DNA from: Promethearchaeota archaeon Loki_b32
GTDB taxonomy: Archaea; Asgardarchaeota; Lokiarchaeia; Sigyniarchaeales; SOKP01
Direction: 5' to 3'
Assembly: GCA_005223125.1 (NCBI GenBank)
Contig: NJBH01000021.1
Span: 1-63,024, forward strand
DNA length: 63,024 nucleotides
A program made the position numbers and the translations under genes. This document shows, in pieces, positions 20,880-43,999 of this stretch. Under the pieces are notes generated by a model that was not told the DNA's origin, did not search any database, and saw only the letters and a program-made list of their open reading frames with translations. The first letter of the stretch is position 1, and the number at the start of each line of letters is the position of its first letter.

Positions 20880-22396
20880 ATGAGTTATAAATTGCCAGAT
20901 AACAAGGACCTTGATGCTATGGTAGGCATTGTGGGAAAAGAGTACGCTACAAATAACAAAGCGATTACTGCGTCTTACTTGGCGAAATCAGTAATGGGTT
21001 TAGAAATCAATTATCCAAAATCGGATAATGACTAAAGAGCCAAATCCCTGATATCGTCATTCGACCTAAATACGTTGAAGAGATTCGCAAAATCTTAATC
21101 TACTGTTCCGCGGAGAAGATTGCAGTAAGTCCCGTCTCTGGTGGATTGTCTGGTGGATTTTCATGCCCAACAATCAAACCTGGCGGAGTTCTCCTTGATT
21201 TAGGAAGAATGAAAAGAATCATTGAAATCGATGAAGAAAATCGATTCGCAATTGTAGAACCTGGAGTAACAATAGGAGAACTCTGGGCATATATGCATAA
21301 AAATCATCCTGATTGGGCACCACCAATACCAGATGGAGCTCCACCAGCCTCTACAGTTATGGGTGATGCTATTGATAGAGGATTTTCATTATACACTTCA
21401 AGTGTGGGGCCACAAGGAGACAATTTTATGTGTGCTGAAGTTGTGTTTCCAAATGGCGATGTTTTAAGGACTGGTTCTTGGGCATTACCAACTGCGAAAC
21501 CATTCTACAAATATGGACTTGGTCCTGATATATGGTCTTTTTTGATGGGCAGTCAAGGGACTATGGGAGTAATCACAAAAGTGGTGGTAAAGATTTATCC
21601 ACATCCCGAATTTAAAACAGTAGTTGTATGGGGTATGTCAAATCCTTATGACATGCAGAATTTAACATTGGAAATCCAAAAGCAAGAATTTGGGATTGCA
21701 CATAATACTGTTATGGTGCAAGGTGGGAATTACCCTTTAGTAATGACCCGATGGCCTAAAGATAAAGTTCCACATGATTATGAATTCTATGAGGAAATAG
21801 GTATTTCGAAATGGTGGATGAATTTTGAAATATGGTGTCAAACCGCTGAGGAACTTGATTATGTGGTCAATAGAATTGATAAGATGGCAAAGGATTATAA
21901 GAAGAATAGAGCTAAAGACCCCGATTCAATAAAATCTCAGGAACTCCATCCAAAACAAATCGCAAGTAGATTAAAAAAGCCAAATAAAATTGCAATACCT
22001 TATGGTTTCTGGGACGCTGGTTTCTTATTTATTACTTGGTATACTCCATGGCCAGAATGTGCCCATTTCTGTGAAATATATTGTAACGCAATGGAAAAAT
22101 ATGGTTTTCCACCCACGATGTGGGTTGCTTCAATTGAGCGTGCTAGACAAGCAATTTGTATGCCTATCATTTGCTTTGATAGCACAAAGACAGAAGAACT
22201 CGAAAGAGTACAAGATTTGAATAGAGAGACTACTGAATATGGTCTGAAACAAGGATGGTTGAATTATCGACCAGATCCATACATTCACATCCAAGCTTAT
22301 TACCAAGCGGGAATGTACTGGAAATACTTGCGCATGTTTAAAAAACTGGTTGATCCAAATGGAATTTTACATCCTGGGAGGCTTGCTCTTCCATAA
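20880..22396 (+). CDS. FAD-binding oxidoreductase (GlcD-like), 494 aa, spliced: join(20880..21005,21038..22396)
   Basis: Exon 1 MSYKLPDNKDLDAMVGIVGKEYATNNKAITASYLAKSVMGLE joins in frame to SQIPDIVIRPKYVEEIRKIL after removal of 32 nt; GSQGTMGVIT and DPNGILHPG motifs. Confidence 0.88.
21006..21037 (+). other. 32-nt BHB intron in an mRNA
   Basis: GGU-[UUAG]-AA^A-UC(A)AUUAUCC-loop-GGAUAAUGA-[CUAA]-AG^A-GCC: 4-bp helix, two 3-nt bulges, paired flanks; removal fixes both frameshift and stop. Confidence 0.85.
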
Positions 22397-33840: not shown

Positions 33841-35304
33841 ATGTTTTCATCTTTTAAAAAAAAAAAGGTTTTGTTTTGCATTTTAATGCTTCTTTTAACA
33901 GTATATATATTCATCCCAAGTAAATTTGATATTACTGATAATAACATTCTGATTAATAAAGATAAAGAAAATCCTTTTTTGATAAATTCCGTTTTTTATA
34001 ATCTTACAGGATCTTCAATATTTATTGATGATTTAGATCCTGAATATAATTGGAGTAAAACTGCAGCTGAAAATGACTGGTGTAGCGGCACAGGTACATG
34101 GAATGACCCTTATATTATTGAAAATGTTATAATTGATGCTAAAAATCCTTTTAATATTGAGACAGTTATTATTGATCTTGAAAACTCTACATCTTGCATT
34201 ACTATACAAAATTCTAATGTCAATTTTATTATTAGAAATTGTACAATTTGCAATTCAGGAGCAAGATTTTTAGATAGTGGAATTAAGCTGATTAATGTCA
34301 ATAATAGCCGATTAATTAATAATAATTGTTCGTCAAATACTTATGGAATGATTTTAATTTTAGATTATAATAACTCAATATCCAACTACAATAGTAATAA
34401 CACAATTTCTTATAATATTTTACAGAATAACTATGCCGGAGTAGCTTCTTATAGTAATAACAATACAATTTCAAATAATATTATTACAAGCAACCTTATT
34501 GGTCTAGTTGAATCGGGAATGAATGATATAATTTCTTTAAATTTATTAGATAATAACTATGCTGGGATATTTCTATTTGATGGTTATAAAAATAAAATTT
34601 CTAAAAATAACTTAACTCATAATATCGAGGGTCTAAGGTTGCTATATTCTAATAATAACTCAATAATTGAAAATTCTATAAATAATAATGAAGAAAATGG
34701 AATTTTCTTACAAACTAGTCATTATAACAATATCTCTAAAAATGAGTGCAACAGTAATAGAAATAATGGAATCCATTTACAAGGAGGATTTTACCCTTAT
34801 ATGGGACCATATCAGTCCTGTGATTATAATTGGATCTCAGAAAATAATCTATATAATAATTCATGTGGCATTCTGCTTAACTATACAAAATTTAATCATA
34901 TCATTAATAATATAATAAATTATAACGAATTTAGTGGTATTGAATTAAACAATAGTGATAATATCGACATTTTAAACAATAAAATTGATGGAAATTACTA
35001 TGGAATCAATATGAAAGAATCAAATTGGAATGACATTATCCAAAACACTATAAATAATAATTATTATGGAATATCTCTTACTTCTTCCCATTTGAATAGT
35101 ATAATTGGAAATGTACTGCATTATAATCGGATCTGTTATATAGAAAATGACTATTGTAGTGGTAATAGGTATGAAGATAATGATTGCATAGAAATAAAAA
35201 TTAATGAAATTAATTGGGTGTTAATTTTTATAATTATTTCATTAATTGGGTTAGTAGTTTTATTATTTGTTCTCTTGGGACGAAAAAGAACAACAATTGA
35301 TTAA
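33841..35304 (+). CDS. Surface right-handed beta-helix (NosD/CASH-repeat) protein
   Basis: Signal/TM, GTGTWNDPYIIEN, many GIxL...NxIxxN repeats, C-terminal TM. Confidence 0.9.
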   Translation: MFSSFKKKKVLFCILMLLLTVYIFIPSKFDITDNNILINKDKENPFLINSVFYNLTGSSIFIDDLDPEYNWSKTAAENDWCSGTGTWNDPYIIENVIIDAKNPFNIETVIIDLENSTSCITIQNSNVNFIIRNCTICNSGARFLDSGIKLINVNNSRLINNNCSSNTYGMILILDYNNSISNYNSNNTISYNILQNNYAGVASYSNNNTISNNIITSNLIGLVESGMNDIISLNLLDNNYAGIFLFDGYKNKISKNNLTHNIEGLRLLYSNNNSIIENSINNNEENGIFLQTSHYNNISKNECNSNRNNGIHLQGGFYPYMGPYQSCDYNWISENNLYNNSCGILLNYTKFNHIINNIINYNEFSGIELNNSDNIDILNNKIDGNYYGINMKESNWNDIIQNTINNNYYGISLTSSHLNSIIGNVLHYNRICYIENDYCSGNRYEDNDCIEIKINEINWVLIFIIISLIGLVVLLFVLLGRKRTTID

Positions 35305-35440: not shown

Positions 35441-35608
35441 TTAGTTTACTTCCCCAATTAAATGTTTTATTGCTTTTTTTGTTCCATAACCGGCATCATA
35501 GATTATGCCATCAGAACCAGCTAAAACATAGATATTTTCGGGTGGTTTTATTGCTCCAGAAGTCCCTTTTTCTTTTATTAAAAAAATACCGGGATAAAAT
35601 TCAATCAC
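35441..35608 (-). pseudogene. N-terminal remnant of an MBL-fold metallo-hydrolase
   Basis: VIEFYPGIFLIKEKG...PENIYVLAGSDGIIYDAGYG; stops before the HxHxDH motif. Confidence 0.6.
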
Positions 35609-37034: not shown

Positions 37035-37244
37035 TTAAAAATACTTAATTGCAAGTAAAATGTCGTCCCTTGTTATTTTCTTACGCTTTGCATGCTTCGT
37101 GAGTGTTAGGGCAGTTTTGGTAAGTTTTTCAGCGCTTTTACTCATCCAATCAACTAACTCATTAACGGCATCTCGAGCAACAATAACAGCTCCATTGTGC
37201 TTCATTAGCCGTCTGATAGGACTCCACGAAATATATTCGGCCAT
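37035..37244 (-). CDS. Archaeal histone, intron-less copy
   Basis: SPIRRLMK...VARDA...HAKRKKITRDDI histone fold. Confidence 0.95.
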   Translation of the reverse strand: MAEYISWSPIRRLMKHNGAVIVARDAVNELVDWMSKSAEKLTKTALTLTKHAKRKKITRDDILLAIKYF

Positions 37245-37324
37245 TTTTTTTTTCCTCTACTATATAGTTATTTTCTTTAATTTTTATTGAAATTTGTTAT
37301 TTTTTAAGAGTTTGTTACATACAT

Positions 37325-37576
37325 ATACATCTTTTAGATATTTAAAGATTTTTATTCATACATAGTTTTATGGAGAAAAAAATAGAAACAATTGAACGAC
37401 AAAATTCGGAATTAAGAAGATGATCAATCTCGTGAAAGTTAAGATTTTTTCATGGAAATTATTATTTCTGCTTGAAATTGAAACTGTGTATTATATTATC
37501 TTTTCAATTTTCTGTCAGTTATGCAAAAAAAGTAAAATTGAAAAAAATAAAGAAAAAATAATCAAATTGTGAAACG
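37325..37576. repeat. Duplicated non-coding upstream region, copy 1 (copy 2 at about 38226..38475)
   Basis: Shared blocks TATTTAAAGATTTTTATTCATAC, AACGACAAAATTCG, TCAATCTCGTG, ATTATTTCTGCTTGAAATTGA, AAAAATAATCAAAT. Confidence 0.85.
37339..37346 (-). promoter_or_regulatory. Putative TATA box of histone copy 1
   Basis: TTTAAATA preceded by an A-rich BRE-like stretch; identical upstream of copy 2. Confidence 0.55.
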
Positions 37577-37907
37577 TAAAATTATCTTTTTTTTAAGAAT
37601 CTGTGACATAAAAACTGATATTTTCATATTAAAAATTAGAGCGATAGAGTCATTAACATTAAAGAATTAGGGATAAGTATTCTGTTAATAAACTCTTCCT
37701 CAGTAAAAGATGCTTTTTCAATCAACCCCTCATATTCAAAGAAACTAGTTGCCCAGTAAATTCCGTATTATATTATTTGTATAAATTTAACTATTTTGTT
37801 AGGAAAAGATTATCAACTAAAAAATCAAGAATAGAAAAAAAAAGAAAAAATTATAAGATTTTTATAGGTTCATTAATTTCCTCGAAGGCTTGGCTGAACC
37901 AAAAAAG

Positions 37908-38147
37908 CTAAAAATACTTAATTGCAAGTAAAATGTCGTTCCTTGTTATTTTCTTACGCTTTGCATGTTTTGTGAGTGTTAGGGCTGTTTTGGTAAGTTT
38001 TTCAGCGCTTTTACTCATCCAATCAACTAACTCATTAACGGCATCTCGGGCAACAATTTTAGCTGGCGAATAAGAGTTTTATTAACCTAAAGCTCCATTG
38101 TGCTTCATTAGCCGTCTAATAGGACTCCAACTAATATAATCTGACAT
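37908..38147 (-). CDS. Archaeal histone, 69 aa, spliced: complement(join(37908..38058,38089..38147))
   Basis: Missing from the ORF track. Spliced product MSDYISWSPIRRLMKHNGALIVARDAVNELVDWMSKSAEKLTKTALTLTKHAKRKKITRNDILLAIKYF differs from copy 1 at 4 of 69 residues. Confidence 0.85.
38059..38088 (-). other. 30-nt BHB/BHL intron in histone mRNA
   Basis: [AGCU]-UU^A-GGUUAAUAA-AACUC-UUAUUCGCC-[AGCU]-AA^A; contains in-frame UAA UAA; absent from the adjacent paralog. Confidence 0.8.
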
Positions 38148-38239
38148 AATAAATTTTTCCTCCACGTTTTTTTATTTTTGATTTTAATTTTTAATTTTTG
38201 ATTAAATTAAATTAACTAAATATATATAGATCTTTTGTA

Positions 38240-38247
38240 TATTTAAA
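38240..38247 (-). promoter_or_regulatory. Putative TATA box of histone copy 2
   Basis: TTTAAATA in the same context as copy 1. Confidence 0.55.
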
Positions 38248-38671
38248 GATTTTTATTCATACTTAGTGTAATAGAAAAAAAAATAAAAAAGATCAAACGA
38301 CAAAATTCGAAATTATAAAAATATTCAATCTCGTGTAAGTTAGAACATTTTCATGGAATTATTATTTCTGCTTGAAATTGAGACTTTGAATTATATTATC
38401 GTTTCAAAATTCTCTCAGATATGCAAAAAAGATGATGGTGAAAAAAACAAAGGAAAAATAATCAAATAGTGAAACACAGGATAAATAAATTTTTGAAGAT
38501 CTACTATATGATTTAATTTTAAAATTAGGGACTATAGCTTCTTTAAGATTAAATTACTCTATCATATTGAAAAAATTGAAGAAAATTTTAATGTAATACC
38601 ATTTAACTTAATCAATTTTTAATTGAAAAGAAAATTCAATTAAATTATTACAGTTAAGAATTTAAGTACAC

Positions 38672-43895: not shown

Positions 43896-43999
43896 GGGAG
43901 GGTGGTCTAGCTTGGTATGATACTCGGCTGGGGGCCGAGTGGTCGGGGGTTCAACGGGCTTCCCGTTTCGGGCATCCCGAAAAAATCCCCCCTCTCCCA
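43896..43999 (+). tRNA. tRNA-Pro(GGG) with a 30-nt intron at position 58/59
   Basis: Acceptor GGGAGGG/CTCTCCC, anticodon arm CTCGG-CTGGGGG-CCGAG; T arm GGGGG-TTCAA|AT-CCCCC restored by removing 43955..43984. Confidence 0.9.
43955..43984 (+). other. Non-canonical T-loop tRNA intron with relaxed BHB
   Basis: [GUUC]-AA^C-GGG...CCC-[GAAA]-AA^A-U; one G.A mismatch in the central helix. Confidence 0.8.

Follow-up and report, generated by a model that had tools for sequence, protein, structure and literature searches.

A predicted 30-nt endonuclease-type intron in one of two tandem histone genes of a Loki-type Asgard archaeon

The DNA analysed here (the window) is a stretch of 63,024 nt, equivalent to contig C27 of a 4.13-Mb genome with a completeness of 95.5%; its encoded proteins have matches among Lokiarchaeota/Promethearchaeota entries, and it carries two histone genes in tandem on its minus strand. 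Both lie inside a duplication of approximately 900 bp (37036-38502, comprising a gene and about 350 bp of upstream sequence), whose units are approximately 93% identical in the coding part and approximately 80% identical upstream. Copy 1 (37035-37244, 210 nt) encodes an uninterrupted protein of 69 aa with an HMf-type histone fold (40.1 bits against PF00808, for a cut-off of 21.4), and the genome contains five matches to HMf-type histone paralogues. Copy 2 (37908-38147, 240 nt) consists of the same gene plus 30 nt, and the repeat spacing in the alignment of the twins jumps from 873 to 903 across this insert. Copy 2 is preceded by a Shine-Dalgarno-like GTGGAGG (38159-38165, minus strand), conserved in relatives, and by a putative TATA-like box (38240-38247, minus strand), the same motif being found for copy 1 at 37346-37339; a sigma-70 promoter scan was discarded as not applicable to archaea. 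At 37258, within the ribosome-binding motif of copy 1, the window has A where other strains and relatives have G, and copy 2 is the better match here. Elsewhere in the window, the segment 33326-35608, in which a NosD/beta-helix gene occupies 33841-35304 and a short ORF resembling a remnant occupies 35441-35608, differs from strains L094-L098, where an intact gene for a 335-aa protein of the metallo-beta-lactamase fold is located.

The insert in copy 2 is predicted to be an intron of the tRNA-endonuclease (EndA) type at 38059-38088 (minus strand), built of one nucleotide, a 23-nt hairpin, a 4-nt helix strand and a terminal AA. It separates exon 1 (38089-38147, 59 nt, codons 1-19 and two bases of codon 20) from exon 2 (37908-38058, 151 nt, ending in TAG), and because it contains TAA twice in frame (38084-38079), the unspliced gene reads ...HNGALG followed by two stops. 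In the predicted fold, an exon strand AGCU (38094-38091) pairs with an intron strand AGCU (38064-38061) to form the central helix; the 5' bulge UU|A (38090-38088) would be cut at 38089/38088; the intron hairpin (38087-38065) has nine positions, one U-C mismatch and a 5-nt loop; and the relaxed 3' bulge or loop AA|A (38060-38058) would be cut at 38059/38058. Beyond the intron the exons pair with each other over 38038-38115, with 38101-38097 opposite 38057-38053 and a distal helix of 38115-38111 with 38042-38038. Folding of copy 2 thus recovered each of the elements that an earlier note had proposed from the letters alone, namely the 30 nt additional to the twin with their two UAA codons, the AGCU/AGCU helix, the UUA bulge, the nine-position stem with a single mismatch, and an A-rich second bulge or loop behind ACAAU/AUUGU, which takes the form of a 2x3 internal loop. 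In the relatives, pairing is slightly better in an outer register whose 3' bulge has 4 nt (96% of cells paired, versus 90% for ACAAU/AUUGU). Cuts after the second base of each bulge excise 38088-38059 and leave Leu at position 20, while registers placed on the AGCT repeat lead to Lys, and one register leads to a stop. The joined protein differs from copy 1 at four residues, all of which are present in intact relatives.

The central helix of 4 bp, the 3-nt bulge on the 5' side with an intron helix closing it, and the restoration of the product by the predicted cuts are features of the bulge-helix-bulge (BHB) and relaxed bulge-helix-loop (BHL) classes; the 3' side of the insert is a 2x3 internal loop or 4-nt bulge in place of a second 3-nt bulge with a direct exon-exon closing helix, so that on the modelled fold it is of the relaxed BHL type and not a strict BHB. 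The fold energy of the insert alone is within the range expected by chance (z -1.64, with 17 of 200 shuffles equally stable), and the insert ranks 23rd among 2,166 BHB-shaped candidates in a scan of the window; the case therefore rests on comparison. Folding of whole mRNAs was uninformative, as the probability of the central helix varied between 0 and 1 depending on the temperature and the gene, and copy 2 of the window and the near-identical allele in contig L075 behaved oppositely. No Rfam match to the insert was found up to an E value of 1, nor, in its mere 30 nt, a ribozyme core or an encoded nuclease, and its size and the absent match rule out a group I, group II or homing-endonuclease intron. 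Assembly error is ruled out as well, because the insert is identical in the independent metagenome contig L075 and is spanned by contigs of two more runs (X3 and X4, both probably DNA) from a different strain.

Comparison was extended to 54 genomes of the genus, followed by pattern scans of metagenomes and species genomes. Stop-containing copies of the copy 2 histone family were found in G007, G019, G020, G067, G076 and G077, and an interrupted copy occurs in 7 of the 54 genus genomes among the matches listed. The survey of related histone loci that the earlier note had called for yielded 26 inserts in 16 distinct histone genes, at five sites: codon 16, codon 20 (site A, that of copy 2 in the window), after codon 53, codon 59 and codon 62. 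The inserts are 29-31 nt long and have a common build of one base, a hairpin of 22-24 nt, four exon-pairing bases and an AA end; the AA is present in all 26, and the central helix is fully paired (4/4) in 25. When the reconstructed proteins were scored against 109 intact homologues, the canonical register was among the best for every one of the 26 inserts, and was the sole best for the 30-nt inserts at site B and for every insert at site C, where it alone yields the majority residue Arg59 and naive deletion yields Lys. Lys at position 20 occurs in none of the 109 intact proteins. The four pairing bases vary with the host site, and in exchanges of introns between sites none of 20 reached 4/4. 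Given an estimated background of 0.025 for 4/4 in any one register, and two to four registers allowed at each of five sites, simple arithmetic puts the chance of the observed pairing at about 2e-6. Inserts of 29 or 31 nt put the following codons out of frame, so that the protein is recovered only if they are removed, and read-through is excluded.

The family is interrupted in the only copies found in G007, G020 and G077. Although the family is otherwise strongly conserved, no copy was found in the search of the genus genomes for G006 (a single-contig genome), G015, G027 and G028, which may reflect loss, assembly gaps or heavier interruption, and the histone family is therefore not proven essential. 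Support in a tree of the 201-nt gene is too weak for counting intron gains. Split matches to copy 2 in the DNA search were rejected as artefacts of the insert in the query itself. In L041 (G025:C45), the 3' half of the histone gene recurs approximately 1.3 kb downstream (1630-1746), an arrangement resembling an integration site.

In an alignment, the introns at site A of the window, G076 and G077 are about two-thirds identical. Three pairs, within the hairpin, have changed on both sides, and the central helix is paired in 100% of cells, in an alignment of only four sequences (those of the four site-A genes); the pattern is suggestive of homology among the introns of three species, with compensatory changes. 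The exon-exon duplex, built from synonymous codon choices, reaches -15 to -18 kcal/mol in the site-A genes, compared with -3 to -10 kcal/mol for the same region in intron-less relatives, excepting the converted twin in the window and one distant intron-less gene, which reaches -13.8 kcal/mol. The first 93 nt of copy 2 differ from L040 (in G076) at 4 positions and the last 108 nt at 35, and this near-identity around the intron would mean either that exon pairing is strongly selected or that the intron passed from one species to another together with its flanking sequence. Judged by these comparisons, the intron of copy 2 is both old and structured.

In G077, the gene (L036) contains two stop-containing introns. 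In comparison with its syntenic intron-less orthologue L089, 27 nt differ in 26 codons with no change of amino acid, which argues that the gene is not dead; by this measure it is under purifying selection and does not behave as a pseudogene. Copy 2 itself differs from L091 by 31 silent and 5 replacement codons, a weaker test given gene conversion. The twins of the window differ by six silent codons versus four amino-acid changes (A2S, E3D, V20L and D60N, from copy 1 to joined copy 2), which is what the earlier description of their differences as mostly synonymous amounts to, and it carries little weight since the twins are gene-converted; the conclusion that copy 2 is no ordinary pseudogene is nevertheless supported. 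P0053 equals the spliced product of L036 but was rejected as a transcript, since the contig that holds it is an intron-less orthologue from another species.

Naturally intron-less alleles exist in close strains. The scaffold L094, whose assembly is labelled METAG and whose flanks are 97-98% identical to those of the window, has both histones intact; at the orthologous position copy 2 reads Gly-Ala-Leu-Ile-Val, with the exact bases left by the canonical cuts, and copy 1 has Val. The same intron-less Leu junction was found in L093, from a different run whose type is not on record. A Val twin and an intron-bearing copy cannot yield this Leu junction in an assembler. Intron-bearing and exactly intron-less alleles thus coexist in strains 97-99% identical, and the natural junction is Leu, neither the Lys expected from slippage or the AGCT repeat nor the Val of the twin, in agreement with the earlier prediction that canonical cuts would give Leu and a simple AGCT duplication Lys. 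Together with the insert family and the covariation, this exact junction bears out the assignment of the insert to the BHB/BHL-type introns.

We infer that the intron-less Leu allele arose by precise loss and is not an ancestral empty site, because its flanking codons are the intron-associated ones common to G076. Precise intron loss is usually explained by a spliced-RNA template. A search of the genome, at its completeness of 95.5%, turned up no RVT_1 reverse transcriptase, and the junction of L093 and L094 could also derive from a rare DNA deletion filtered by selection. As to where the intron came from, no source was found elsewhere in the genome (the best match, 21 of 30 positions, equals that of shuffles) or in a search of viral contigs.

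Sequence has also moved between the twins. In L075, L104 and L105 the codons of copy 1 at positions 11-18 and 26 are the ordinary ones, whereas copy 1 of the window has the codons of copy 2 at these positions yet keeps Val20 and lacks the intron; this pattern shows that copy 1 of the window received copy 2 sequence, evidently by gene conversion. In the group of L093, L094 and L097, even the leader of copy 1 is copy-2-like. Residues 2, 3, 20, 60 and 64 occur in differing combinations among strains, and since the residues that distinguish the twins are reshuffled by gene conversion, neither copy represents a stable histone variant. In L075, from a strain 97% identical, the twins are separated by a 1.5-kb insertion with transposase-like ORFs (L075:5630-7173).

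The genome encodes the enzymes that such an intron would require: two EndA paralogues and one RtcB. The catalytic EndA is closest to PDB 3p1z_B, retains the Tyr, His and Lys, and has an aligned loop lysine, which we take to be that of the crenarchaeal-specific loop. Two-subunit EndA with a lineage-specific loop is known to cut relaxed motifs (PMC12397907). Other genes of the genome carry similar inserts, including 30 nt in the G1 motif of EF-2 (G000:C3:75804, plus strand) and 28 nt in rpL11 (G000:C57:12438, plus strand), the removal of which restores a conserved motif in each case; in the window, an FAD oxidoreductase gene starting at 20880 contains 32 nt (21006-21037, plus strand) with a 4/4 central helix, and canonical removal restores the frame into a PDIVIRP motif. 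Several tRNA genes are about 28-30 nt too long (43896-43999, plus strand, in the window, and others on C24, C38, C48, C61 and C64), consistent with introns at non-canonical positions, the scripted boundaries being ambiguous. A genome-wide BHB scan recovered EF-2 and rpL11 but missed the copy 2 histone and is thus no census; the lengths of its candidates showed no excess at 30 nt, whether or not they were filtered for the joining of ORFs.

From these observations we propose that a histone mRNA is here interrupted by a genuine archaeal intron of the endonuclease type, spliced out by EndA and RtcB, and we hold this explanation to be very probable. Copy 2 would be transcribed from its own promoter, and its pre-mRNA would fold into two bulges separated by four base pairs between exon and intron. 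Two-subunit EndA would then cleave each bulge behind its second base, at 38089/38088 and 38059/38058, and the exons would be ligated by RtcB to give a message for a normal 69-aa histone with Leu20; a message left unspliced would stop after 21 codons, giving a 21-residue fragment. The intron would belong to a family of mini-introns of about 30 nt that arise at different sites, are tolerated since the tRNA machinery takes them out, and are now and then lost with precision.

RNA evidence is available from the contigs of one metatranscriptome, run X1. A 99-nt contig covering 38019-38117 without differences, at a depth of 15.2, contains the whole intron; the piece assigned to copy 1 has a depth of 11.9 and the piece common to both copies a depth of 30. 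The earlier note had named the spliced joint as its check and a finding of unspliced transcripts only as the contrary result: the contigs of X1 contain the unspliced form and no joint 38058/38089, an outcome that goes part of the way towards the contrary result, although such contigs drop minority forms. The contigs suggest that unspliced copy 2 RNA is common, though RNA libraries can hold DNA, so that the result limits splicing without excluding it; it is the main reason that our confidence in the splicing explanation goes no higher. The end of X1 record 5 at 38117, the point at which a spliced path would rejoin, is not used as evidence, because such a path should also break the contig at 38058, and an A/G variant at 38118 or a hidden neighbour gives the same end. 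Gaps in RNA cover between the histone genes were likewise set aside.

The unspliced contig leaves room for an unlikely alternative, in which the insert is an intron by descent that is now spliced poorly or not at all, so that copy 2 makes little histone and looks intact through conversion by its twin. Its assembly from RNA in unspliced form only, at a depth near that of copy 1, would fit, as would the relaxed loop on the 3' side and the demonstrated conversion between twins, an intact twin making copy 2 dispensable. However, copy 2 departs from copy 1 in exon 1 and in the leader, and yet both parts are intact in all strains seen; its intron is the same in the window and in L075, the direction of conversion is from copy 2 to copy 1, and relatives with a homologous intron are under strict purifying selection.

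Slightly less probable again is regulation, an addition to splicing rather than an alternative to it, whereby histone dosage or a variant is tuned by splicing efficiency, as the earlier note had supposed. An apparently abundant unspliced RNA and a relaxed motif are what such a gate might produce, and the intron-less twin could supply a basal level. The distribution of the intron speaks against it: it varies within a species, being missing from copy 2 of L094; it is absent from most of the genus, and the inserts fall at five unrelated sites; the residues that could define a variant are shuffled among strains; and unrelated housekeeping genes carry similar introns. The supposition is therefore not supported, and the intron is best read as a tolerated passenger, a regulatory role having no positive support beyond the unspliced contig.

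Improbable and already largely refuted is the idea that a duplicate gene was killed by an insertion, of chance origin or from a mobile element, which duplicated AGCT at its target. AGCT does stand on both sides of the insert, and the fold is inside the range of shuffles, but the homologous inserts of G076 and G077 keep their pairing although the repeat has been lost in G076 (AGCT/GGTT), sites B-E are without such a repeat, the interrupted relative has changed 26 codons and no amino acid, and the natural intron-less allele has Leu where the repeat predicts Lys. Least credible of all is retention of the insert in the RNA with ribosome bypass or read-through, to which the unspliced RNA and the in-frame length of 30 nt would lend themselves, but which fails on the inserts of 29 and 31 nt, the ten residues that read-through would put into the histone fold, the endonuclease geometry of the boundaries at all five sites, and the same architecture in tRNAs, which are untranslated.

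Removal by EndA and RtcB, the reading we prefer, would make the copy 2 intron resemble in its working both the cbf5 intron and the tRNA introns of Asgard archaea. The cbf5 pre-mRNA of Desulfurococcales and Sulfolobales contains an intron of 16-44 bp (Watanabe 2002; Yoshinari 2006; Yokobori 2009, PMC2738675) that is cut between the second and third base of the bulge (PMC2738675). The two systems have in common a short intron in a coding sequence, an often unconventional BHB, the same rule of cutting (predicted for the histone), a hetero-oligomeric endonuclease and lineage-specific loss. They differ in that cbf5 has one site in one gene, whereas here five sites are found in a 69-codon histone, along with other genes, in an Asgard lineage; in that presence and absence vary here within a species, next to an intron-less twin; and in that splicing of cbf5 was established with cDNA, while the histone case is known from DNA comparison and an unspliced RNA contig. 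Non-canonical tRNA introns of Asgard archaea are likewise short BHB inserts with repeated independent gains, two EndA paralogues and no known route of arrival (PMC11291895; bioRxiv 10.64898/2026.10.13.758758), and the tRNAs of the present genome have similar inserts of 28-30 nt. Those papers deal with tRNA genes only, the preprint making no mention of mRNA, whereas the present intron sits in an mRNA, where the reading frame determines its boundaries.

As a protein, the histone is of a familiar kind: the 69-aa, tail-less fold and the presence of several paralogues are common to HMf-type archaeal histones and their variants (PF00808; PMC12993045), but the differences between the twins move between copies and so do not amount to stable variants. 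A 2026 review of Asgard archaea makes no mention of introns or splicing (PMC12993045). In a literature search covering few subscription journals, confirmed splicing of an archaeal coding sequence was found only for cbf5, and no paper was found on such introns in Asgard protein genes. The IRE1-cut intron of XBP1/HAC1 is another short mRNA intron that is excised by a protein endonuclease and closed by a tRNA ligase, its removal changing the product. That system, named in PMC13149111, has a different nuclease and motif and is a conserved, regulated switch, whereas regulation of the histone intron is unsupported.

What this locus adds to the known cases is an intron-less twin, gene conversion, an allele with the exact junction in sister strains, and an unspliced RNA contig. 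It is a good test case: alleles with and without the intron are available, the twin provides an internal control for RNA and peptides, and archaeal intron gain and loss become directly testable. On a wider reading, which we advance tentatively and hold at a little short of even, Loki-type Asgard archaea would practise routine mRNA splicing by the tRNA endonuclease in many protein genes, histones included; the gain and precise loss of mini-introns would be continuing within species, apparently by way of spliced RNA as template, although the genome yielded no reverse transcriptase, and the twins described here would show that turnover in progress. The interruption of histone genes by tRNA-type introns in the archaea nearest to eukaryotes would make the histone counts and other gene inventories of these genomes wrong, as gene callers miss interrupted genes, and would show that the spread of mRNA introns needs no spliceosome.
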